DNA of 64,000 nucleotides from Candidatus Multivoradales bacterium (GCA_965248055.1 CBDFIJ010000004.1:1248001-1312000), one strand, 5' to 3'; counted from the stretch's first letter, positions 45,411-56,015 are shown. Made by a program: numbers and translations. Notes: generated by a model not told the origin, from the sequence alone.

Positions 45411-45430
45411 TAAGTGCCACCCGAATATTT
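45411..45430 (+). repeat. REP-like transposase end motif, inverted copy
   Basis: TAAGTGCCACCCGAATA matches the reverse complement of the 53456 copy at 16/17. Confidence 0.6.
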
Positions 45431-45533
45431 GTATTTGAAGAACAGGAAGCATGAGCCCACGCCCATGGGTTGCCAAGAAGCTAGGCAGCCTGGGTTCACT
45501 AGGTAAATCTTTTGATGTGTTAACATCTGATGC

Positions 45534-45776
45534 GTACGCACCACCCTTAACCTCGCCGAAGATATCCTCCTAGCGATCAAAGAACGCGCCCGCCGCCAGG
45601 GTCGTAGCGCCGGGGAGGTACTCTCTGAATTGGCCCGCGAAGCCTTGACTCGCGATCGGGTCGCCGGCGAAGTCGCTGAAGATGGCGTTTTCTACGGTTT
45701 CGAGCCACTCCCCCGCCGCGGCCCTGCGATCTCCAACGAACTGATCGATCAACTGCTGGAGGACGAGCCAGATTGA
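45534..45776 (+). pseudogene. vapB: VapB/CopG-like antitoxin lacking an in-frame start
   Basis: Paralog of 55348-55590; ATG position reads GTA, in-frame TGA two codons upstream; ATG at 45530 is out of frame (MRTHHP*). Confidence 0.75.
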
Positions 45777-46201
45777 TGCGTGCGCTCCTCGACGTCAATG
45801 TGCTTCTCGCCCTGCTCGACGCCGACCATGTCGACCATCGGCTTGCTCGCGCATGGCTCAATCGCGACATCGGACACGGCTGGGCGTCCTGCGCGATCAC
45901 CCAGAATGGTTTTGTCCGCGTCGTGACTCAGGAGCGCTACCCAAGCCCGGTGTCAACGAAGGAAGCGACTCAGAGGCTGCGGCGAGCGACTTCCACCGAG
46001 CATCACCAGTTCCTGCCCTGCGATGCCAGCATCCTCGATGAAGTTATCCTCGCCGACCGCATTCATGGATCGAGACAAGTGACTGATGTGTATCTGCTGG
46101 CTCTCGCCATCGCGCACGGCTGCCGCTTCGTAACCTTCGACCGCTCGGTCCCGCTGTCCGCCGTAGTGGGTGCGGACCCGGAACACCTGCTCACTTTGTA
46201 G
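45776..46201 (+). CDS. vapC: VapC PIN-domain toxin
   Basis: ALLDVNVLLAL, QVTDVYLLALA, VTFD. Confidence 0.92.
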   Translation: MRALLDVNVLLALLDADHVDHRLARAWLNRDIGHGWASCAITQNGFVRVVTQERYPSPVSTKEATQRLRRATSTEHHQFLPCDASILDEVILADRIHGSRQVTDVYLLALAIAHGCRFVTFDRSVPLSAVVGADPEHLLTL

Positions 46202-46253
46202 GGTTCCGGCCCGTAGGTACAGAACCGGGTGCAGAACCGGCCGCCCGCCCTCG

Positions 46254-46340
46254 CATTATTCGGGTGGAACCTATTTGGGGCGGGGCGTCGGGCACGGAGA
46301 TGAGTAAGTGGTAGTGGTTGGACATGAAGGCGAAGGCGTG
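46254..46340 (-). mobile_element. REP-like end motif plus 56-bp transposase fragment (HUH region)
   Basis: CATTATTCGGGTGGAACCTATTT at 46254-46276; 46285-46340 matches 53207-53262 at 53/56. Confidence 0.85.
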
Positions 46341-46487
46341 GCAGTGCTCATATGTCATGGACGCATACAGGTTCCCCGAGGAAGCTCTCTACGCTTGCAG
46401 TTTGCGCCGGCTACCCGCTTACGGGAGTTTGTTTAGCCCGGCCGCCCGGTTTCAGTCTGGTAATGTCATTCTCAGGCGGACTCCAGT

Positions 46488-47273
46488 ATGGCTATTAGAT
46501 TCACCGAGGCGTTGGCCGCAGAGTATTCGGGGCGCTACGACTCCTGCGAAATCCGGACGGAGAGGTTTGCCGAGGTGGACCGCGTCGCAGACGCCGTCGT
46601 GGCGAGCAAGAGTCGCTACGAAGCGGCGGCCGGAGGCTTAGGCATCCCATGGTTTTTTGTCGGCGGTATCCACAATCTGGAGAGCAGTCTCCGCGTCGAC
46701 CGCCATCTCCACAATGGTGATCCACTCACCGGTCGTACGGTCCACGTGCCTCCCGGCCGTCCCCCGACCGGCAATCCGCCCTTCACCTGGGAAGAGAGCG
46801 CCGCTGACGCGCTCACCTTCGAACGGCTGGATCGAGTCGATGACTGGTCACTTCCCCGTCTCCTCTACGAAGCCGAAAAATACAACGGTTGGGGCTATCG
46901 TCGCCACCACCCGGAAGTGCTGTCACCCTACCTGTGGAGCTTCACCAACCACTACGAAAAGGGCAAGTACGTGGCCGACGGTCGCTGGTCGGAAACCGCG
47001 GTGTCCAGACAATGCGGTTTCGCGGCCGTGATCAGAAGACTGGAGGAGCGCACCGAGATCCCGCCGCTCGCGGCTCATCCACCCTCCAGGACATTCTTCA
47101 GGTTTTCGCGAATCAGCGCGGAAAAAAGCCGTGTCGTAGACCTGCAGCGGTTCCTGAACACGTTCGACGGGATTCGCCTGCGAGTCGACGGCGCGCCGGG
47201 CCCCAAGACATCCGCCGCTGTAGAGAGGATCTTCGGTGCCTACTTGGAAGGCGACCCGCGCAATGAGGAGTAA
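46488..47273 (+). CDS. Lysozyme-family protein (COG5526-like) with putative C-terminal peptidoglycan-binding region
   Basis: IHNLES, HLHNGDPL..RTVHVP.GRP, YNGWGY, SPYLWS.TNHY, DLQRFLN..VDG.PGPKT. Confidence 0.8.
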   Translation: MAIRFTEALAAEYSGRYDSCEIRTERFAEVDRVADAVVASKSRYEAAAGGLGIPWFFVGGIHNLESSLRVDRHLHNGDPLTGRTVHVPPGRPPTGNPPFTWEESAADALTFERLDRVDDWSLPRLLYEAEKYNGWGYRRHHPEVLSPYLWSFTNHYEKGKYVADGRWSETAVSRQCGFAAVIRRLEERTEIPPLAAHPPSRTFFRFSRISAEKSRVVDLQRFLNTFDGIRLRVDGAPGPKTSAAVERIFGAYLEGDPRNEE

Positions 47274-47802
47274 GCCGGCGTTGGGAGTCAAGCGTTCGAC
47301 ACCCTTACTCTTGCTCGCCCTGGTCATTGGCGCCTGCAGTGGCCCGCCGTCGAATCAGGCCGTCAAGACTGAGGAAATGCCGCCGGATCAGGCGGCGTCG
47401 GTGACCACGGTCGTCGACGGCGACGGGGACGGCCTATGGGCCACGACCACCGACGGGCGTCAATTGCTTGCAGACGACGGCAAGTACTACGAAGCACGGG
47501 TGTCACCGGACGGACGCTTCATTGCCGCTGACATCGCCGTGTTCAGCAATCTGCAGGTAACGCGGCTTTACCGGCGCCCCTCGGGCTCAGAGCCCTGGCA
47601 GCCGGCAGCCAACGTTTCCGAGACCGCTTGGAAGGCTGCAGCGCAGGCCCAAGAGTTCACAATCGAAGACGTGATCAACCCCCGGACCCGGTTTGTAGCG
47701 TGGTCGGAAGACGGAACCGCCCTCGAACTGGAAGTTTCCGGAACGCTGCCCGACGGCTCCGAGCTGCGCCACACCCATTCTGTGCAGCTCGAAGCCGATT
47801 GA
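47263..47802 (+). CDS. Hypothetical lipoprotein
   Basis: Lipobox LVIGAC; overlaps the stop of the lysozyme-family gene. Confidence 0.7.
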   Translation: MRSKPALGVKRSTPLLLLALVIGACSGPPSNQAVKTEEMPPDQAASVTTVVDGDGDGLWATTTDGRQLLADDGKYYEARVSPDGRFIAADIAVFSNLQVTRLYRRPSGSEPWQPAANVSETAWKAAAQAQEFTIEDVINPRTRFVAWSEDGTALELEVSGTLPDGSELRHTHSVQLEAD

Positions 47803-47898
47803 GGCCCTGCCGGAGTCCCGATCCCCTGCTACGACAATGAGGCGGCGCGAGCTCGTCACCTGACTGGCGCTTCTGTCTGGCGACCTAGCGCCGCTCCA

Positions 47899-48030
47899 TT
47901 CAATGATCCCGGCGGTGACCGTATCCTTTTGCCCCCACGCTTCAGCGGGATCATCTCCACCTTTGACCGCGACAAAATGTCTTGTCGCTATCTTCCGAGC
48001 CTGAGTCGCAGTGAGTTCTCCGTGACTGCC
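47899..48030 (-). pseudogene. Tyrosine integrase arm-binding domain remnant
   Basis: GSHGELTATQARKIA...VKGGDDPA resembles N-terminal arm DNA-binding domains of phage integrases. Confidence 0.55.
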
Positions 48031-48332
48031 TAGAACTTCTCCCGCCAACCGTGCATACGCCCAAGCTCTCGGGCGATATTGCTGTTGAGGTAGCCAACAA
48101 ACTGCGCCATTCGCTGAGCGTCAGGCACAGAGATCAGCATGTGGTAGTGGTTGGACATGAAGGCGAAGGCGTGTATCTCCACCGGGTAGAGCCGCTGCGC
48201 CCTGCCCATGACACCAAGGATCGCGTCGTTGGCTGCTGGTGAGGGCTTTAAGAGATACCGCCCCTGGAAAGTCCGTGTCGTGACTTCAACCAGAGTGTTT
48301 TCGGTCGGAATGAAGCGAAGTCGTCGTCCCAT
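48030..48332 (-). pseudogene. Truncated REP-associated-type tyrosine transposase (first ~100 codons)
   Basis: Near-identical protein to the N-terminus of 52510-53421; ends ...WREKF*. Confidence 0.9.
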
Positions 48333-48366
48333 GAAACCAGAGGCGTAAACCGACTCATTCACCTCG

Positions 48367-48529
48367 CATTATTCGGGTGGAACCTATTTGGAACCCATTT
48401 GGGTAGAGTATTTTCGGTCGGAATGAAGCGAAGTCGTCGTCCTATGAAAGGAGAGACGTAAACCGACTCGATCACCTCCCATTATTCGGGTGGAACCTAT
48501 TTAGGCTCAGTGGACCCTCTCTTGCGTGA
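48367..48529 (-). repeat. Two more end-motif copies with intervening and following transposase fragments
   Basis: Motif at 48367-48389 and 48480-48502; 48411-48479 repeats the transposase 5' end; 48510-48529 matches 52864-52883 at 19/20. Confidence 0.85.
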
Positions 48530-48584
48530 TTGTCAAAATCGAGAATAATTGCACTCGTGTTGGATGGTATCTGCTTGATTTGGC

Positions 48585-49397
48585 TTAGTGTTCCACACGG
48601 GGGGCGATGATCGCGTTGCAAGCCCTGATTAGATTTTTTTTGGAGTAATGGAAACCCGTAATCAACGTCATCATGTCCTCCCGTCCCAGGAGACGCCTCG
48701 TGATCTCAGGTACTCCAATTCCTTGATCGCGAAGCCTCCCCACTTCTTCGCGTAAGTTTTCCAGAAATTCGAGCTTTCTCTGGATCGCACTGCGACCCGA
48801 ATTGAGTACGCCCCGATGAGAACAGAAGACTGTTTCAAATTGCAGCTGGAGGATGTCGCGTAAGCTTTGGAGGTGAAGGCGAAGATCCTCGTCTTGTCGA
48901 AGGTATATGGTCTTGGACGATACGTAGAGGTCGCCGGAGAAAAGCCAACCCCGCTCGGGCTCCAAGTAACAAGTCATATCGCTGGAATGCCCGGGAGCTG
49001 ATATAGGAACTAGACGGAACCCACCCGCGAGCTCCAACGCCTCAGGGAGTACTGAAGTCTTGGCGGACCGTGGGCGCCCCCAGACGATGTGCTGGTATGG
49101 GCGGAGAACAAATCCATGGGCGAGCCTACGCCGTGATGCTACAGGCGCGTAAGCTCTAGCTCCGGTAGCGTCTCCGATGGAGGCTAAATTGCCACTGTGA
49201 TCCTCGTGGTGATGAGTGACAATCACTTTCGCAATGTCTCGCTCTTCTATAAAGCCCCTAACCACGGACCACTGGTTAGCCGGTCCGGTATCAATAATGG
49301 CGTCACCTAGACGGTAAAGGACGCAGGTGGTGTTTAGCCTGCCGGCAAATCGCCCGACGCGCAAACCCTCGACATCAGCGTGTTGAAATCGTGACAT
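48585..49397 (-). CDS. MBL-fold metallo-hydrolase
   Basis: IDTG, THHHEDHSG, PGHSSD, FSGD, CSH. Confidence 0.88.
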   Translation of the reverse strand: MSRFQHADVEGLRVGRFAGRLNTTCVLYRLGDAIIDTGPANQWSVVRGFIEERDIAKVIVTHHHEDHSGNLASIGDATGARAYAPVASRRRLAHGFVLRPYQHIVWGRPRSAKTSVLPEALELAGGFRLVPISAPGHSSDMTCYLEPERGWLFSGDLYVSSKTIYLRQDEDLRLHLQSLRDILQLQFETVFCSHRGVLNSGRSAIQRKLEFLENLREEVGRLRDQGIGVPEITRRLLGREDMMTLITGFHYSKKNLIRACNAIIAPRVEH

Positions 49398-49439
49398 CCG
49401 TTTCGATTCTCTCGTACGCCGGAAACTTCTTTGGATCCG

Positions 49440-51183
49440 TTACCGGCCTTTGGCATCCATCGGACGTTGTTCGACCGGACCTAGTTGTCTTGCCTCAGCC
49501 CATGAACGTTCTCGTGTGTTAGCTGGAAAACCCGCTCCTGCCAGAGGATCCCTTGGGAAAGGTGGGACGGGTTCAACTCCTTCGGGATACCGCAGAGGAT
49601 CGAAGACTTTCTCGATACGACGAGCGAAGTCGACATAGAACTCGCGATCAGCGAATAGATCCAGCAGAAGGTCTTCATCCAACACCCAATTACCGATCCC
49701 GTCTTCCACATACACTCCTTGAGGAACAAGCATCTCGTCCTCGATCTCTTGAAGGGCAAAGTAATACGGCTTCATGCCCTTCCAGACCTTGCGGTAGATT
49801 CTCCCGACAATCAGTTTCTGGGCTTCTCTCTTGCCACCAAAGCAAAAATCCTCGGCTGTCTCGAAGAGCGCCTTTTGAAGGACGCTGGGAAGCATTCGCT
49901 GTGGAAACGTCACTACGGAGTGGCCGTTCAGGAATCGCGCGGGATATCCTGGTATTCGACGATGGAGGAGTCGCTTCCAGTCTCGCGTTCTTGGTGTGAT
50001 GCCCTGGCAGTAGAGCTGAATGGTGAAGCAGCCGACCTGCTCAGCGAACGTCGCGATCTCGCGAACCGACCGCTCAGTGTCATTGGCGTAACCGGCAATG
50101 AACGACGCAGAAAACCTAAAGTCAAAGCGGCGCAGTCGCTCCGCTGTATCGATGTAGACGGGCATGTCCGAGTCTTTACGCATATCCTCAAGCGTAGCGT
50201 TCTCAACCGACTCAAGACCCATGGAGATGTTCCAAATGCCCGCTTTGCGCATTAGCCGCAGGAACGAATCCGAAAAGCCCTCATTACCATGAGAAAACTG
50301 ATCTGCCCGGCACAAAACGGTGAAAGTTGGCTTACGACTGCGATCCTCAAAATGACGAACGAGTGCTTCAAGAAGCTCCGTTGTTGCGTCGAGGTCAGCT
50401 CCGAAGAGGTTGTCCACAACCATGAAGCGGTCTACCCCGGTGTGCTCGAGTGCGTGACTTACGTCGTGAACAAAGTCCTCGACCGGACGCACGAAATAAC
50501 CGGCTTTGCCAAACAAACTTGTCCACGAGCAGAAGGAGCAAAAGTATGTGCAGCCCCGGGAGGCTTGTACGGGCAACTGAGTGAGGGAGAGCCGCGATTT
50601 TACGTCTCGACTGCCGACAAATGTGGAAAAATCGTAACGGTAGTTAATCTCCGCACGGCTCTGGCGTCCGCTAGAAACTTGCCAATCCCCCATTTCGTCA
50701 CGGTACCAGAGCCCGGGAATAGTGCTAAGCGCCCGATCTCGGGCAGAAGAATCTGCCAGCTCTAGAGCGTTGAGTAGAGGGATGACAGTGTTATCTCCCT
50801 CGTACAGAACAATGACATCAGCGTATCGTTGAGCTTCTTGCGGAAACATGGTGGCGTGCTCACCACCGATAACCAGATCGAACGGACACCGCGCACAAAG
50901 TCGCATCTGATTGACCAGGATTTCGTTTTCGGACCAGGATTTCGTTTTCGGCTGCGGTTGTCGTAAGTCCATTAAGCAACAAGAAACGGGGGTCGGCTTT
51001 GGCAAGCCGATCAGGGCTGATTGCCCCACAATATGGCTCAAAGAGCAAGAAACAGTCATAGTCGGTACGTTCACTAAGGATCGCCGCCATCGTCATCAAG
51101 CCCGAACGCGGCATGGTGATCGAGCTTCCCAGGTTGGGAATTGTTGGCATCATTTCGACCAGAAAAACTTTGTTACTACTCAC
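49440..51183 (-). pseudogene. B12-binding radical SAM protein frameshifted by a 19-bp tandem duplication
   Basis: GAGGAG RBS plus GTG 51183; GGEHAT; SRGCTYFCSFC; GLES; duplication 50913-50950. Confidence 0.88.
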
Positions 51184-51271
51184 AGCTATTCTCCTCAACC
51201 AATACCGCAAAAGTCCGCGAAACGGAACCGCGTCAGACAGCTACTCTCGACGAACTGTCGTGCTTCTACGA

Positions 51272-52095
51272 TCACTTCTCCACCACACCGAACAACAGTG
51301 CATGATCCGAGTGCTTGTCGATCCACGCACGCTTTTGAGTCTTCGTATTCTTCTCTGGCCATCCACTCACTTCGACTTCGGCTCCTCCGGCTAAGCTCCG
51401 AATCTTCATCGCTTTGTCGGCAAACACATGGTCAAGCGTGCTTCCCGGAAAATAGTTGTCGCCCCCGTTCCACCAGGTCAAGTCCTGGCTTCGCTGCAGT
51501 GGGCGCATGTTGACTCGATTGAACCTCTTGATAAGTGAATCGATCTCTTCGTTACATGAAAGATCGCTCGTGTTGTTGAACGCCGCATTCAACCCCATAG
51601 TGTTGAGATCCCCTAAGCACAGGAAAAGAGACGTTTCGTTTGGCCCAGCAATCTTGTCGAGTACGCGCTTCAACTTCGCTACATGAGCGAACATGTCGTC
51701 TCGGAGTCCCCACGATCTTGGGTCCGGAAGTGACTTCTCCTTGGAGAAAGAGGATGGGGTAGTCCTTGCTGTCGATCCGCAATGTCGCAAGTGCCCCAGG
51801 TCGCAACGTTGGCACCTTGCTCTTGAACTCTTCGCGCTGGGTGACAAACGACTGGATACTTCTCCGGACACCAACCAGAATCTCCATTCCGCTCTTGGGG
51901 TTTTCGGTGATGGTGAACGCGTGCGAACTCATCTTGGTCATGAGCGTGATTGAACACGCTCTTACCCAAAACCTCGTAGAGCGCAAAGACGTCCGGATTC
52001 TTTGCCTCCAGCACATCAACGATGCATTGCACCCGAGTCGGATCGCAATGGAAGTGCTAAACATTCCAGGACGCAAATGAAAAAAGTTTGACCAT
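51272..52095 (-). pseudogene. Endonuclease/exonuclease/phosphatase family pseudogene
   Basis: SWNV*HF (TAG 52057-52059), PDVFALYEV, GDLN, LDH, SDHA spread over three frames. Confidence 0.8.
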
Positions 52096-52509
52096 TCCGT
52101 TCACCTTGACAAACACAAATGCGGCCCGTCTACAAGACCACCCCGCTGCTGGACCTCGGAGCACCCCGACCTCAAGGTCCGTGTTCGGCTGACTGCCCCT
52201 TATATCAAGGAATATGGCGTTTGTCAGCGTCGACGATCACATCGCAGTTCATTCTCTAGCCAATCCACCGGTGGGTGCCGGTGGGTGCCATGCGGGTATT
52301 GAGAACTCTTTGGAGAACAGATCGAAGCATCAATATCCGGATAGATTGGCCAGAAGCTAGCCATCCTTCGTTCCGTTTTAGTATTTCGTAGGCTCGACCT
52401 GCCCGCACACCAAGAAATTCCAACCCAAGCTTCCCCAGTACACACTCCAGCCATTGCGTCCGCCAAAGGAAGCCGATTTGTGGTCTCGTGATAAATGCTG
52501 TCGAGCCGC

Positions 52510-53421
52510 CTACGCGATAAACAGGCTAACAAACGGCCTGGGTGGTGGAAAAGATCCCGAGGGAAAAGCCGCGGTGAGGTTGCCATATCTCAGTTGTTCT
52601 GAAGCGTCGCGATATGCACTCAGGAAGTAATCGTAGGCTCGGTAAAGAGCGCGCCGCATCTTGCGGGTGGCGCAGTGAAACATCGGTGCTGGAGACCTCT
52701 TGAGGCGAGGCGGGCAGTAGGTTGCTGACAAGTCAGGCAATTCGCCCTCCAAGGACTCTGCCTTTGAACTCGAGCCTTCTGCGACCACTAGGTCGATGAG
52801 TTCGCGAACCCGTTGTACTTGCTCTTTGGGCGACCGGTGAGCCCAACAAGGAAGAGAACTGAGGTGGACCCTCTCCTGCGTGAACACCGCTGGGCTGTGG
52901 CCGCGTCGCACTCTCTCCCAGTATTCGTGGGTACGTTTGCGCCATCGTCCTGTGAGCGTACGTCTGCCCTCAGCCAGGGCATTTGCCGAGTGAACACCCG
53001 ACCACTCTCTTGGGTCAGTAACCAGCCCTTCTTTAACTCCCTGCGACAGCAGATACTTCATTCGCCCCTCTTGCGCTGCCTCTTCCTCGCTGACCACAAT
53101 CGCCTGATAGCGCCGACCCCAGAACTTCTCCCGCCAACCGTGCATACGCCCAAGTTCTCGGGCGATATTGCTGTTGAGGTAACCAACAAACTGCGCCATT
53201 CGCTGAGCGTCGGGCACGGAAATGAGCATGTGGTAGTGGTTGGACATGAAGGCGAAGGCGTGAATCTCCACCGGGTAGAGCCGCTGTGCCCTGCCCATGA
53301 CACCAAGAATCGCGTCGTTGGCTGCTGGTGAGGGCTTTAGAAGATATCGCCCCTGGAAAGTCCGTGTCGTGACTTCAACCAGAGTGTTTTCGGCGGGAAT
53401 GAAGCGAAGTCGTCGTCCCAT
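52510..53421 (-). mobile_element. REP-associated-type HUH (Y1) tyrosine transposase, apparently intact
   Basis: VTTRT, FMSNHYH (HUH), FWGRRY, catalytic-Tyr candidate in KYLLSQGVKEGLV, C-terminal FPSGSFPP. Confidence 0.88.
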
Positions 53422-53455
53422 GAAACCAGAGACGTAAACCGACTCAATCACCTTG

Positions 53456-53478
53456 CATTATTCGGGTGGAACTTATTT
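53456..53478 (-). repeat. REP-like end motif upstream of the intact transposase
   Basis: CATTATTCGGGTGGAACTTATTT, 22/23 identical to the other copies. Confidence 0.85.
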
Positions 53479-53618
53479 GGGCCCTCGGATCTAGGACAAA
53501 AGCTTGACCTAATTCAAGGCTAGCTCTAGTATCCAGGCAAAGCTTTAGCATTCCGAGCGTGAAATCGACGGCTATGTGGCTGTGGGTAGCACTTTTGGAG
53601 AAAAAGGAGTGCTCGAAA

Positions 53619-55097
53619 ATGGAAAATAGATACGTTCCAAGGTTACTAATCTGCTCCATCCTGGCTGCAGTATCGCCAGCAACAACGCAGACCGCAAAGT
53701 GGTTCGAGGATCCAAAGCTCCTTCGAGAATTAGAAGCTGCCGCCGAGAACTGTGGTTCGGACCCAGCAGCGTCCAAAGATCTAAAGACCGCAGCGGAATT
53801 TCTCGAAGATGTTGCCAAAGACTACCGGGAGCAAAGGCTGTTCCAGGGCTCGGCTCAGGTCGCCTTGAGTTCCACTCGGCCGTCAGTCCGAGAATCTACA
53901 GATGACATTCGTAAGGATACTGACGGTGACGGTACCTCCGAAACAACGATTAATACACGGAGAGAAGGTCGGGAAACTATCAATACCAAGATAGAAATTG
54001 CGCGCGGACTCTATCCTGACCGGTTTGAGGCCTCATCAGCCATTGATGTTCGAGTGTCCGACGGAGACATCGTCGAAGACGTGAGCGATCTATCGGTCAG
54101 GTACGGTTTCCACACGAACCCGTGGCTTGAAGTTTTTGCTTCATTGAAGAGGACCAGCAACAACTTGATCAACATAGATCAGCGATACGAAGTTGGCGGT
54201 GGTATCACCCTAGTTTGGCATTCAAGACGTTTTACTTTGGACAAGGACGAACAAAGATGGAGATTGGAAAACCCCAAACCTCGGAAAAAATCTAAGAATC
54301 GGAGTTCAGACCCTAGAAGCCAGGAAGGACCTGAGAGCCGGAGTTATGTCGAGCACAAAGCGCTGTTTTTGAATCCAGATGTGAAGACAAAAAAAGGGGA
54401 AGAAGGTGGCTGGCGGGCGTTGCAACACATTGACCCCACCACATCACTAGAGACGTTCTTACCTCTCTTGCAGAAGTGTGCAATGAAAGCAGCAAATGAG
54501 AAAAGGAGCGGGCTCGAGCTGAGCCAAATCCGGCAGGAAGCGCACAAAGACTGGCAGAAACTTCAAGCAACAAAACGCCTACGGCACTCTAAACTCGGAC
54601 TGGGATTCATTCTTGCGTACAATTACGAGGCTGAGCAGGCAACGCTTAAGAGGACGACGACTCGAAAACTAGGAGAAAACACCTCAAGAACCCTATCAGA
54701 ATCTTATCCTGTTGACTTGTCTCACCCAAGCCTTGTAGTTGGTTGGTTCATCAAATGGAAGCCTTCTCCTCTTTGGGAATTCAATACGGAATGGCAACGC
54801 AAATATGGGCTTTTATTGGGCGGCGAGACATTTTTTCGAGAGACAGTAATTGTGGCTCGCAATGACAATTTTGAGCCGATCTTCGAAGAGGTTGCAAGCT
54901 ACCGAGATAATATTGAATTGCTCGGAACCCTGAAACTTGCGGACTCGGTAGTTGGTCATGTTGGCAGTGTGAAGTTAGGGCTCACTGTCAAGTTTGATCT
55001 CGACAACGCACCGCCGACTTGGAGGCTTGGCCAAGACGGTATCAGTGCGCCGGATGCGCATTACAACGTAGATCTTAATTTGATCGTCGAATGGTAG
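53619..55097 (+). CDS. Hypothetical exported protein, probable outer-membrane beta-barrel
   Basis: AAGGAG RBS, signal peptide, alternating beta-strand pattern, terminal YNVDLNLIVEW. Confidence 0.6.
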   Translation: MENRYVPRLLICSILAAVSPATTQTAKWFEDPKLLRELEAAAENCGSDPAASKDLKTAAEFLEDVAKDYREQRLFQGSAQVALSSTRPSVRESTDDIRKDTDGDGTSETTINTRREGRETINTKIEIARGLYPDRFEASSAIDVRVSDGDIVEDVSDLSVRYGFHTNPWLEVFASLKRTSNNLINIDQRYEVGGGITLVWHSRRFTLDKDEQRWRLENPKPRKKSKNRSSDPRSQEGPESRSYVEHKALFLNPDVKTKKGEEGGWRALQHIDPTTSLETFLPLLQKCAMKAANEKRSGLELSQIRQEAHKDWQKLQATKRLRHSKLGLGFILAYNYEAEQATLKRTTTRKLGENTSRTLSESYPVDLSHPSLVVGWFIKWKPSPLWEFNTEWQRKYGLLLGGETFFRETVIVARNDNFEPIFEEVASYRDNIELLGTLKLADSVVGHVGSVKLGLTVKFDLDNAPPTWRLGQDGISAPDAHYNVDLNLIVEW

Positions 55098-55327: not shown

Positions 55328-55341
55328 GATGTGATAGCATC
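55328..55341 (+). promoter_or_regulatory. vapBC promoter/operator
   Basis: GATG-N6-CATC inverted repeat over TAGCAT -10; equivalent GATGTGTTAACATC precedes copy 1. Confidence 0.5.
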
Positions 55342-55347
55342 TGATGT

Positions 55348-55590
55348 ATGCGCACCACTCTCAACCTCGCCGAAGACATCCTCCTAGCAGTCAAAGAGCG
55401 CGCCCGACGCCAGGGCCAAAGTGCAGGGAAGGTTCTCTCTGATCTTGCTCGGGAGGCGCTAACCCGTGATCAGGTCGCCGACGAAGTCGCTGAAGATGGT
55501 GCTTTTTACGGCTTCGAGCCGCTACCGCGCCGTGGACTGGCCATCTCCAACGACTTAATCGACCAGCTACGCGAAAATGACCCTGACTGA
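55348..55590 (+). CDS. vapB: VapB/CopG-like antitoxin
   Basis: MRTTLNLAEDILLAVKERAR..SAGKVLSDLAREAL; TGATG coupling to toxin. Confidence 0.88.
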   Translation: MRTTLNLAEDILLAVKERARRQGQSAGKVLSDLAREALTRDQVADEVAEDGAFYGFEPLPRRGLAISNDLIDQLRENDPD

Positions 55591-56015
55591 TGCGCGCACT
55601 GCTCGACGTCAATGTACTTCTCGCCCTGCTGGATGCCGACCACGTCGACCATCGGGGCGCTCGCTCGTGGCTCAAGCGCGACATCGCTCTCGGTTGGGCG
55701 TCGTGCGCGATCACCCAAAACGGCTTCGTTCGTGTCGTGACTCAAGAGCGCTACCCCAGCCCAGTTTCGACCAAGGAAGCTACTCACAGGCTGCGGCGGG
55801 CGACTGACACAGAACATCACCAGTTCTTGCCCTCGGATATCAGTATTCTCGATGAGGTTGTTCGCGCCAATCGAATCCACGGATCAAGACAGGTCACCGA
55901 TGTCTACTTGCTAGCTCTGGCAGTCGAGCATGGTTGCCGTTTTGTGACCTTTGATCGATCGGTCCCACTCTCCGCCGTCGTGGGCGCCAAAGCGAAACAC
56001 CTGGTGACTCTCTAA
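55590..56015 (+). CDS. vapC: VapC PIN-domain toxin
   Basis: 123/141 aa identical to the copy at 45776 (hand count). Confidence 0.92.
   Translation: MRALLDVNVLLALLDADHVDHRGARSWLKRDIALGWASCAITQNGFVRVVTQERYPSPVSTKEATHRLRRATDTEHHQFLPSDISILDEVVRANRIHGSRQVTDVYLLALAVEHGCRFVTFDRSVPLSAVVGAKAKHLVTL

Follow-up and report, generated by a model that had tools for sequence, protein, structure and literature searches.

Terminal inverted repeats of a TIRtron/TIRYT-type element and a local stack of its relics in a Candidatus Multivoradales genome

The repeated motif and the intact element

In the genome of Candidatus Multivoradales bacterium, a 23-nt motif located upstream of an intact HUH transposase gene recurs three times in the neighboring DNA, each time close to a piece of the same gene. 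What this motif is and how it came to stand beside fragments of its own gene was analyzed in a 64,000-nt stretch (CBDFIJ010000004.1:1248001-1312000, referred to below as the window), in the whole assembly and in related genomes. The exact motif, CATTATTCGGGTGGAACCTATTT, was found at positions 46254, 48367 and 48480, and with one mismatch at 53456, on the + strand in all four cases. None of 100 shuffled sequences contained a match. With up to three changes allowed, the four window sites were the sole matches to the 23-mer in the 3.4-Mb assembly, and a whole-assembly search revealed a fifth one, with four changes, at C4:3286924. The motif at four positions and three adjoining self-derived fragments, as reported in the initial annotation, were confirmed in the sequence and lie far above chance.

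The motif had also been described as a GGT-GGA-ACC mini-palindrome and compared with REP hairpins. Neither reading was retained, as the fold z-scores of the four window copies (+1.1, -0.3, -0.1 and -0.8) were near those of shuffled DNA, no stable hairpin of GGT-GGA-ACC appeared in their folds, and the motif is one arm of a terminal inverted repeat (TIR). Some solo TIR variants are true palindromes (fold z -2.7).

The motif is the left TIR of an IS-like element of about 1.2 kb and of the TIRtron/TIRYT type, the intact element in the window being located at 52263-53480. Its features are as follows:

52263..52305, + strand: diverged right-end TIR, GGTGCCATGCGGGTATTGAGAA, of the intact element, its outer half GGTGGGTGCC being doubled (regular expression and alignment with other right ends)
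52510..53421, - strand: intact gene encoding a 303-aa Y1/HUH tyrosine transposase (conserved ATG at 53421; mechanical ORF start GTG 53451)
53451..53480, - strand: motif copy 4, left-end TIR of the intact element (motif search, repeat alignment and nhmmer)

The right-end TIR lies 205 nt past the stop codon and gave a weak signal in nhmmer alone (E 9.9). The start of the transposase at ATG 53421 was fixed by alignments of upstream regions and homologs. The protein matched Pfam PF01797 (E 5.9e-10) and NCBIfam REP_Tyr_transpos (52.8 bits, under the cut-off of 80), and its best fold match was TnpA-REP 4ER8 (E 4.8e-6), with ISDra2, IS200 and IS608 also detected. The HUH motif and the tyrosine align to those of ISDra2 TnpA and are invariant (NHYH and KYLLSQ, respectively) among 18 homologs. 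The C-terminal half, a tail of 150 aa, is conserved, and no HTH was identified in it by Pfam.

The genome holds nine full-length paralogs and nine fragments of the transposase gene. All 13 upstream regions compared (paralogs and 5' fragments) had in common TAGGTnCCAsCCGAATAnnTGCAAG...TTGCGTCTCT...ATG, with the TIR ~55 nt before the ATG and the similarity ending at the outer edge of the motif. Most gene copies also have an inverted TIR 200-280 nt past the stop codon. A regular expression detected such a copy in 8 of 13 downstream regions, and a diverged inverted copy was found at the end of the unit shared by p1481 and p1486. These two paralogs are recent duplicates, 96% identical over 1165-1176 nt, as are p1142 and p2107 (99.9% over 3266 nt), and in both pairs the duplicated unit is bounded by the repeats. 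No flanking direct repeats indicating target duplication were present in the two pairs. The element is composed of a TIR, a leader of ~55 nt, the Y1/HUH gene, ~200-280 nt and an inverted TIR, with the transposase as its sole gene. Gene orientation tracked the replichore at six of seven loci, the window being the exception, a number too small for significance.

A search with an nhmmer TIR profile (E≤1) revealed 59 TIR-like matches clustered around gene copies in about five regions of the genome, and the core GGTnCCAsscGA (also given as GGTnCCAsCCGA) was common to 46 aligned TIR copies. In all paralogs, the motif precedes the ATG by a fixed ~55 nt, which is also where a promoter or operator would be placed, and a motif variant stands directly before the reading frames of RHS cassettes. 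That the motif serves the gene family purely as a promoter or operator and is not a transposon end is nevertheless barely conceivable: inverted copies follow the genes at a fixed distance, the repeats form the edges of duplicated units that are 96-99.9% identical, and copies are also found apart from genes, singly and in tandem arrays. The two roles are mutually compatible.

The same layout was encountered around homologs in other Acidobacteriota. TIR matches flanked 8 of 10 loci in genome G026, on both sides at six of them. Among 80 loci from GTDB Acidobacteriota, an upstream match 52-120 nt away was found at 36 (modes near -55 and -100) and an inverted downstream match at 41, mostly at +230 to +285. 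The profile used for these foreign loci was built from the present genome and about half of the 80 loci had no match; these may lack the layout or may have TIR ends that have diverged. In the JGI annotation of relatives, the protein is named 'REP element-mobilizing transposase RayT'.

Partial copies of the element in the window

Outside the intact element, the window contains the following pieces:

45411..45431, + strand (opposite to the four motif copies): solo TIR-like copy CCTAAGTGCCACCCGAATATTTG, ~25 nt upstream of the NUDIX-MBL gene start (nhmmer TIR profile, E 0.0055; inverted-repeat pair I2)
46249..46278, - strand: motif copy 1, solo left-end TIR of 30 nt, 30/30 bases equal to copy 2 (nhmmer E 0.0006)
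46280..46340, - strand: fragment A, a 61-nt gene piece carrying the HUH motif (about codons 64-84 in the ORF of 313 codons), abutting the outer tip of copy 1
48029..48362, - strand: copy 2 body, leader and codons 1-110 (ORF 48030-48362), 95% nucleotide identity to 53118-53417
48362..48391, - strand: motif copy 2, left-end TIR of truncated copy 2 (motif search, repeat alignment and nhmmer)
48390..48403, - strand: a 'stutter' that adjoins copy 2 on its outer side and repeats the outer TIR half, CCCAAATGGGTTCC when written on the gene strand (read from the sequence)
48405..48474, - strand: copy 3 body, leader and codons 1-24, ending 1 nt before the half-site and copy 2
48475..48504, - strand: motif copy 3, left-end TIR of truncated copy 3 (nhmmer E 0.00017)
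48510..48529, - strand: fragment C, 20 nt from mid-gene (about codons 190-196), separated by 5 nt from the tip of copy 3 on its outer side

The three fragments noticed beside the motif copies were recovered, all in gene orientation and separated from the 23-mer by 3-8, 15 and 7 nt. Fragment A had 92% identity with 53202-53262 and 89% with 48113-48173, with 53 of 56 bases equal between 46285-46340 and 53207-53262, and tblastn aligned it to aa 64-82 at 95%. The region 48405-48506 (TIR, leader and codons 1-24) was 89% identical over 102 nt to 53381-53482 and likewise 89% identical to copy 2. For fragment C, 19 of 20 bases were equal to 52864-52883. In a search of both strands of the chromosome, all 20-mers with at most one change from the gene fell inside loci of the gene family and none in unrelated DNA, which indicates that this short match is real homology. 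The 334-nt copy at 48029-48362, comprising the first 110 codons, is a fourth piece that had been little stressed. Tblastn aligned it to aa 1-110 at 97% and Pfam Y1_Tnp matched it with E 3.3e-7; its HUH motif is kept, the catalytic tyrosine is missing and unrelated DNA begins at the cut at 48029. On its inner side, motif copy 1 has neither leader nor gene, and the flank there matched no element unit.

The four window copies were 89-95% alike, compared with 75-87% identity to the ortholog in a sister genome and 76-82% to paralog p2198. As no other paralog is as close to them as they are to one another, they are local derivatives. Motif copies 1-3 are relics of the same local lineage. Copy 1 is a solo end, and copies 2 and 3 retain 110 and 24 codons, respectively; the three are stacked head to tail, with an older, 3'-truncated gene piece abutting each outer tip. 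Judged from their sequence, copies 2 and 3 are truncated head-to-tail copies and not captured inserts.

The sister genome (G001) lacks the 7.1 kb present here, its Y1 gene lying right next to the NUDIX-MBL gene. The extra motif copies are located at block joints of this 7-kb accessory mosaic, which is absent from the sister genome, carries VapBC, two unknown genes and an MBL/radical-SAM/EEP block, and varies in GC content by block (60-63% versus 51-56%). A second VapBC paralog occurs in the region. Short-read contigs of four runs, which come from one sample and are probably the assembly's own source, tiled the junctions with no differences and even depth, giving no sign of a collapsed assembly.

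The initial annotation had considered a repeat and insert arrangement serving sequence capture. A CRISPR-like repeat-spacer array was rejected, as the spacings are irregular (2113, 113 and 4976 nt) and the inserts, of 20-334 nt, are all self-derived and in native register, with no non-self sequence among them. A self-limiting role had been proposed as well. In such a functional array, antisense RNAs read from the + strand, or the 110-codon frame 48030-48362 acting without its tyrosine as an inhibitor, would limit transposition. Every piece would indeed be antisense to the gene if the + strand were read, and the 110-codon frame is uninterrupted, with a TIR and a leader of its own. Set against this are the irregular spacing and insert length, the absence of such a relic array at the other eight full-length paralogs, the pseudogene-like divergence of the copies and a search, itself a weak test, in which no sigma-70-like promoter was found on the + strand near the copies, and we regard this role as highly improbable. 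The motif with its gene pieces is probably a scar and not a capture or antisense system; nothing found supports such a function.

Relation to known HUH systems

TIRtrons, or TIRYTs, are RAYT- and IS200-related Y1 HUH genes flanked by TIRs (Di Nocera, De Gregorio and Rocco 2013, PMC3733652), also discussed by Quentin et al. 2018 (PMC6006769). The window element resembles them in having a Y1 HUH gene with TIRs in place of REP hairpins, a moderately abundant TIR family occurring as single, dimeric and clustered copies (59 matches here), and several differently decorated genes per genome (PMC3733652). Acidobacteria are named among the TIRtron hosts, with a sharply defined protein group of their own (PMC3733652). 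The sequence GGGGWSAS, ascribed to 'some TIRs' (PMC3733652), was absent from the 46 aligned TIRs, and the protein differs from the described ones in its length (303 aa versus a median of 238) and in the lack of a Pfam HTH in the tail. TnpAY1 subclass 2.1, equated with most TIRYTs, is defined by NHVH/NH[YF]H, W[EQ]/FQ and YIELNP/Y[IV]HLNP motifs and an HTH tail (PMC6006769). When compared by these published motifs, the NHYH of the window protein fits the HUH motif (PMC6006769, Table 1), whereas its tyrosine motif, Y[LV]L[SA][QH]G (YLLSQG in the window), and its W motif, FWGRR, do not. In the available parts of PMC3733652 and PMC6006769, no mention was found of end-anchored partial duplications or of gene relics at element tips. 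As likened by published descriptions and motifs, the element is of the TIRYT/TIRtron type and not a REP hairpin system.

Elements of the IS200/IS605 family lack inverted repeats and have imperfect subterminal hairpins at either end, and their TnpA, of ~130-150 aa, consists of the catalytic core only. They cause no target-site duplication and their insertion depends on the lagging-strand template; the cuts made by IS608 lie 19 nt and 10 nt from its hairpins. The window element shares with them (IS608 and ISDra2 TnpA; 2XM3, 2VJV) the catalytic core with HUH and a single tyrosine in Y-x-x-S/N-Q and a recognition core ~10 nt inside the element tip, and it may also resemble them in target duplication, none being visible in the two pairs of recent duplicates. 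In contrast to them, its ends are inverted repeats that form no hairpins (z +1.1 to -0.8), its 303-aa protein is twice as long, with a conserved tail of 150 aa, and it carries no tnpB. Neither the hairpin ends nor the core-only TnpA of this family was found.

RAYTs are typically single-copy, vertically inherited genes accompanied by hundreds of REPINs (Bertels et al. 2017, PMC5581495). The combination of a HUH Y1 enzyme with short repeats, also solo and clustered, is similar (Bertels and Rainey 2011; PMC5581495), whereas nine full-length and nine partial genes, recent duplicates and only about 59 repeats are not (PMC5581495). In relatives, up to 25 matches per genome were counted. Assignment to RAYT/REPIN was rejected on these grounds, the gene being multicopy and the repeats not being abundant hairpins around a single-copy gene.

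Junctions at the element tips and their possible origin

At all seven junctions between a TIR and a gene fragment in this genome, BLAST homology stopped 2-13 nt before the nhmmer TIR match, and after counting the ~10-nt leader or half-site, the fragments ended 0-6 nt from the outer tip of the TIR. At three of the junctions (C4:1385736, 1394949 and 1395791), the TIR is a variant that is either solitary or placed at the head of an RHS orphan cassette; because these junctions are located inside a segmental-duplication region, they are not fully independent and may differ in origin. A mirror image was found at C4:2373885, where a full copy with its right TIR is followed by a second piece running from codon 59 to the end and the right TIR. 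Long duplications anchored at an end are uncommon, having been found in 2 of 53 TIR pairs that lie on the same strand and less than 700 nt apart.

An independent case, L058, was identified in a Thermoanaerobaculia MAG, where a 222-nt unit of TIR, leader and codons 1-48 stands directly before a TIR with the full gene. The two units are 99.5% identical, the junction is seamless and four solo TIRs lie in tandem upstream. The downstream remainder of a split gene was absent, with nothing past the right end of the full copy within 2.2 kb. The junction and its flank share a TGC microhomology, and L058 may accordingly have arisen by slipped-strand or illegitimate recombination. Taken together, the seven tip-abutting junctions and L058 point to end-anchored events rather than random decay.

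The initial annotation had named decay of tandem copies as the alternative. Full copies would then have suffered random internal losses, and the proximity to the motif would be an effect of the search. Decay has plainly occurred, as have unrelated insertions: the region is a jumble of truncated copies, unrelated blocks of mixed GC and a second VapBC paralog, its copies are 89-95% alike, and fragments lacking a TIR on one side exist, such as copy 2 cut at 48029. The junctions themselves are not random. One endpoint fell at a TIR tip in 7/7 cases although 120-nt flanks were searched; the rough chance of lying within 13 nt is ~0.14 per junction and ~1e-6 for seven, with independence only partly given. 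The recent junction of L058 formed without decay, and plain decay is considered quite unlikely.

Nested transposition would require at least three insertions of whole elements into resident copies of their own gene, followed by deletion of the other halves. A gene piece followed by a left TIR and its mirror, a right TIR followed by a gene piece, are the expected products of such insertions, and younger TIRs (copies 1 and 2, 30/30) abut older gene pieces (89-92%). Against this, the complementary half of the split gene is missing across all seven junctions and L058, and no common target sequence was visible at the junctions. In L058, the 99.5% identity of the units and the empty 2.2 kb beyond the right end fit a tandem partial duplication. 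This explanation seems unlikely, if somewhat less so than plain decay.

The account that we consider probable is that the motif is the TIR of a TIRtron/TIRYT-type element, that the relics arose by events anchored at the element tip rather than by random deletion, and that they form a scar with no demonstrated function. Of the motif-directed strand transfer suggested earlier, what stands is that the motif is the end of the HUH enzyme's own element and that the junctions are tied to its tip (7/7 and L058). The 'captured' inserts do not, as two of the pieces are contiguous TIR, leader and 5' coding sequence in native register.

In the mechanism favored here, the transposase would nick one strand ~10 nt outside the conserved GGTNCC core, the 3'-OH of the flank would prime strand-displacing synthesis into the element over a variable distance, and the displaced 5' end, held by the tyrosine, would be resealed onto the new 3' end. 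The product would be a tandem partial duplication, [tip...x][tip...rest], and since the ends are inverted repeats, a mirror-image product would form at the right end. The stack would afterwards have been broken up by insertions and deletions. Fragments A and C require additional deletions whatever the model.

In IS91, Helitrons and HUH Rep initiators, strand-displacing synthesis starts from a nick at one end, and one-ended or tandem products result when termination is imprecise. The proposed end-anchored duplications would follow a similar logic; the enzymes of these rolling-circle elements are of the Y2 or Rep type and act on distinct ori and ter ends, unlike the Y1 enzyme of the window, for which a role in replication is purely conjectural. 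To our knowledge, such a replication-primed 'end stutter' is undescribed for Y1 transposases.

A single reaction, in which a nick at the tip is followed by inward copying of 10 to several hundred bases by the host polymerase and by resealing, could conceivably account for the head-to-tail relics as well as for the arrays of solo ends and the stuttered half-sites, a tentative idea that we rate as doubtful. If true, the cleavage site and polarity of the TIRYT class would be readable straight from genome scars. The half-site stutter, with the outer half of the TIR repeated, was detected at 52 of 191 TIR cores, compared with 23 of 191 for the inner-side control.

Motif copies and transposase gene pieces in the window

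The 23-mer motif, the left terminal inverted repeat (TIR) of a Y1/HUH transposase element, occurred exactly at 46254, 48367 and 48480 and with one mismatch at 53456 (copies 1 to 4), on the + strand in all four cases. A match was obtained in 0/100 shuffles, and across all 3,405,899 bases (4 contigs) of the assembly these four sites were the only ones with three or fewer changes. The following gene pieces were located beside copies 1 to 3.

Pieces of the Y1 transposase gene in the window
46280-46340, fragment A, 92% identical to 53202-53262
48029-48362, body of copy 2, a 95% identical copy of codons 1-110
48405-48506, copy 3 including its TIR, 89% identical to 53381-53482
48510-48529, fragment C, 19/20 bases identical to 52864-52883

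In a genome-wide scan, 20-mers with at most one change from the Y1 gene were confined to loci of the Y1 gene family; therefore, the 20-nt fragment C is not a chance match. The initial annotation had reported the motif positions and the adjoining pieces derived from the transposase itself, and this observation is real, being borne out by the motif scan with shuffles, the sequence comparison and the 20-mer scan. Short-read (Logan) contigs of a single sample (four runs) tiled all junctions with 0 differences and even depth, which argues against a collapsed assembly, the sample being probably the assembly's own source and thus not independent of it.

The body of copy 2 (48030-48362, -) forms an uninterrupted frame of 110 codons and has a TIR and a leader of its own; the HUH motif is kept and the catalytic tyrosine is missing. 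If expressed, it could act as an inactive DNA-binding fragment.

The transposase and the ends of its element

The gene at 52510-53451 (-) encodes a Y1/HUH transposase (Pfam PF01797, E 5.9e-10) and scored 52.8 bits against NCBIfam REP_Tyr_transpos, under the cut-off of 80 for that model. From alignments of the upstream regions and of 18 homologs, the ATG at 53421 is the true start, and the protein is 303 aa long. The HUH (NHYH) and tyrosine (KYLLSQ) motifs align with those of ISDra2 TnpA and are invariant among the 18 homologs, as are the residues LPCW, FHC and FPxGxFPP of the 150-aa tail. The AlphaFold2 model (pLDDT 79.5) best resembled TnpA-REP 4ER8 (E 4.8e-6) and also resembled the ISDra2, IS200 and IS608 transposases; the Foldseek search of the PDB with the whole model gave matches confined to the first, catalytic half and none over the tail. 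A tblastn search of plasmids with the protein gave no match. The genome carries nine full-length and nine partial copies of the Y1 gene, the other eight full-length ones showing 59-74% protein identity to the window copy and one of them, the paralog p2198, containing an internal stop.

All 13 of the aligned upstream regions in this genome carried TAGGTnCCAsCCGAATAnnTGCAAG, about 16 nt, TTGCGTCTCT, about 6 nt and the ATG, with the similarity going no further than the motif's outer edge. An inverted TIR copy was present about 210-270 nt 3' of the stop codon in 8/13 downstream regions, and the intact window element has a diverged right-end TIR, GGTGCCATGCGGGTATTGAGAA, at 52284-52305. The limits of the element are fixed by two pairs of recent duplicates. 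Paralogs p1481 and p1486 share 96% identity across 1165-1176 nt, from CC[CT]AA[TA]AGGTACC... to ...CACCTGGCACGCTCTCTG, and p1142 and p2107 are 99.9% identical over 3266 nt (C4:1142300-1145565 and C4:2104270-2107535, the latter being L004 7301-10566), from the left TIR GAAAGTGCC to a TIR-like sequence. No flanking direct repeats were found at either pair. The occurrence of inverted TIR copies downstream of the genes and the boundaries of duplicated units falling at TIRs contradict the reading of the motif as purely a promoter. Besides its Y1 gene, each of the p1142 and p2107 units contains an IS110-family transposase gene (DEDD_Tnp_IS110 and Transposase_20); the Y1 element and the nested IS110 appear to have moved as one.

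A TIR profile built from left ends, reverse-complemented right ends and solo copies detected 59 sites in this genome at E<=1, grouped around the Y1 gene copies. The four window copies gave no hairpin on folding (z +1.1 to -0.8), by which the reading of the motif as a REP hairpin was ruled out; certain solo TIR variants elsewhere are true palindromes. In a relative, G016, a stretch of about 400 nt (L034 1479-1876, contig C75) consists of a left TIR, Y1 codons 11-111 and an inward-facing TIR about 20 nt past the truncation of the gene, and looks like an internally deleted derivative.

The Y1 family was present in 28/31 genomes searched (this genome and 30 relatives, the unpublished G002 counted in), some with up to 25 matches, and at 513 loci among GTDB species representatives, the best 80 of which were all from Acidobacteriota (Thermoanaerobaculia, Holophagales and 'Multivoradales'). 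When the profile built from the studied genome was applied to the others, TIR matches flanked 8/10 loci in the relative G026 (on both sides in 6) and 2/10 in the relative G011. Among the 80 of 513 GTDB loci taken into the flank analysis, a TIR match lay 52-120 nt 5' of the ATG in 36, and an inverted match lay downstream in 41, mostly at +230 to +285. The scored windows covered <5% of the sequence searched, and we therefore estimate that <1 match would fall in them by chance.

TIRYT/TIRtron elements, scarcely treated in the literature searched, were named in 2013, in a paper that sets the proteins of acidobacterial hosts apart as a group of their own (Di Nocera et al. 2013, PMC3733652). The window element agrees, by description, with the operational definition given there, but lacks both the GGGGWSAS motif reported for some TIRs and the Y motif of subclass 2.1 in Quentin et al. 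2018 (PMC6006769, Table 1). Judged from its sequence, it is of this known kind, here as a new family member.

Junctions at the element tips

At 7/59 TIR sites, a truncated gene piece lay within 120 nt beyond the outer edge, the flanks of full copies and tandem right-end arrays being left out of the count. Three of these junctions are in the window and the others at C4:1385736, 1394949, 1395791 and 2373885; as a caveat, 3/7 belong to an RHS/IS256 region that has undergone segmental duplication. BLAST homology stopped 6, 13, 5, 6, 2, 3 and 9 nt short of the profile match, distances which become 0-6 nt when one includes the leader of the end (about 10 nt) or, for copy 2, the half-site duplicated there. 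A test for a fixed junction position had been proposed earlier as a check; the pieces stop 0-6 nt from the tip at all seven junctions. The junctions also have polarity: left ends adjoin 3'-truncated pieces and right-oriented ends adjoin 5'-truncated pieces. Such precision makes random decay of former copies unlikely. Nested insertion of one element into another, followed by loss of the other half, would be a rival explanation, but the complementary half of the split gene was absent at all seven junctions. The flanks of the junctions yielded no target sequence.

In L058, a locus of a Thermoanaerobaculia MAG, four solo TIRs in tandem are followed by a unit of TIR, leader and codons 1-48, which directly precedes TIR, leader and the full gene and is 99.5% identical to it over 219 nt. 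The junction is located at the tip, no further piece follows the full copy in the 2.2 kb covered, and the locus is an independent and recent example of a tip junction. The TGC which this junction has in common with the flank is in favor of a further rival, microhomology-mediated slippage. Ten truncated copies were fetched from other genomes, four of which, cut by contig ends, were left out, and the remaining six, among them the G016 stretch L034 with its two inward-facing TIRs, included no clear case of a tip junction. The outer 9 nt of the TIR were repeated just outside 52/191 TIR cores, compared with 23/191 in the inner-side control, such half-sites being found at copy 2 and at the right end of the intact window element. 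Long duplications were rare (2/53 same-strand TIR pairs within 700 nt).

The data suggest end-anchored events in which the transposase acts on the tip of its element. In the favoured scheme, a nick at the tip would be followed by strand-displacing synthesis inward and by resealing. The left end would become [tip...x][tip...rest], and the inverted orientation of the ends would give the mirror product [...x...tip][x...tip] at the right end. One process could then explain stutters of the half-site (x about 10), arrays of solo ends (x about 30) and the units of 113 and 222 nt. The scars would predict that either strand is cut about 10 nt beyond the GGTNCC core, and suggest that the enzyme is able to seed local partial duplications. 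The enzyme family is hairpin-dependent and acts on single strands, and the scars offer a modest but testable mechanistic clue to its action on inverted-repeat ends. Neither gene relics nor end-anchored duplications are mentioned in the accessible parts of the TIRYT/TIRtron literature (PMC3733652, PMC6006769).

The capture or antisense system put forward in the initial annotation is unsupported, and a functional antisense or inhibitor role likewise found no support. A scan of 8.4 kb for sigma-70-like promoters, a weak test for Acidobacteria, gave one site, fewer than in shuffles, and none at a motif copy. Clusters of motif and gene fragment of this type should be annotated as transposon debris and not as regulatory arrays.

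Four RHS C-terminal orphan cassettes at L001 5364-15976 (C4:1384363-1394975) are headed by the TIR variant GGAAAGGTGCCACCCGAATGTTGGAGGT, which has the ATG within the repeat; two of the four adjoin 5'-truncated Y1 genes, and the stretches separating the cassettes contain IS256-family (Mutator) transposases and a PKD/RHS gene.

The window region compared with the sister genome

The Y1 ortholog of the sister genome G001 (72% nt identity) has the NUDIX-MBL gene as its immediate neighbour; in the window, 7.1 kb lie between the two genes.

Features from the intact element to the NUDIX-MBL gene, in gene-strand order
53480-52263, intact element
low-GC block (51-56% GC) with EEP, radical-SAM and MBL genes
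fragment C
TIR3 with 24 codons
half-site and TIR2 with 110 codons
block of 62-63% GC with two unknown genes
fragment A
solo TIR1
VapCB
45411, solo TIR in opposite orientation
NUDIX-MBL gene

The four window copies are 89-95% identical to one another, as against 75-87% to the G001 gene and 76-82% to paralog p2198, and therefore form one local lineage, within which copy 3 and fragment A are older than copy 2. Since the relics sit at the joints of a strain-specific accessory island, the ends may aid accessory gene shuffling in Thermoanaerobaculia-type Acidobacteria.

Inward-facing TIR copies (45411, +; 46249, -) flank the VapBC (PIN) toxin-antitoxin pair at 45514-46201, and a paralog at 55328-56009, 79% identical, is without TIRs. 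VapBC was rejected as mobile cargo: the flanks of homologs in 7 relatives gave a single weak profile match (E 1), and homology to the second window pair ended at the coding region. The flanking TIRs were treated as a by-product of rearrangement. The solo TIR at 45411 was also rejected as the orthologous right end of the G001 element, as the positions of the TIR-like sequences differ (25 nt upstream of the ATG in the window, within the coding region in G001). The G001 sequence, the 24-mer AAGGTGCCACCCGAATAATGAG (+, L007 about 1241-1263, G001:C2:308053-308075), is located 235 nt downstream of the Y1 gene, in frame in the N-terminal coding region of NUDIX-MBL, to which it adds about 6 codons relative to the studied genome.

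A perfect 19-nt tandem duplication, GACCAGGATTTCGTTTTCG x2, is present at 50913-50950 in the span of the radical-SAM frame (49440-51074, -). Just outside the left end of the intact element, a block of 47-50% GC (53500-55000) is more mosaic accessory DNA; its 512-aa ORF (53559-55097) had no Pfam match. The remaining contigs C1-C3 (14.8, 16.7 and 28.4 kb) have 39-43% GC, compared with 57% for the chromosome, and may be plasmids, phage or binning contaminants. Along the chromosome, cumulative GC skew is lowest at 1.94 Mb and highest at 0.11 Mb; the + strand carries the Y1 copies at 0.6-1.49 Mb and the - strand those at 2.1-2.37 Mb, the window copies (1.29-1.30 Mb, -) being the sole exception among 7 loci.
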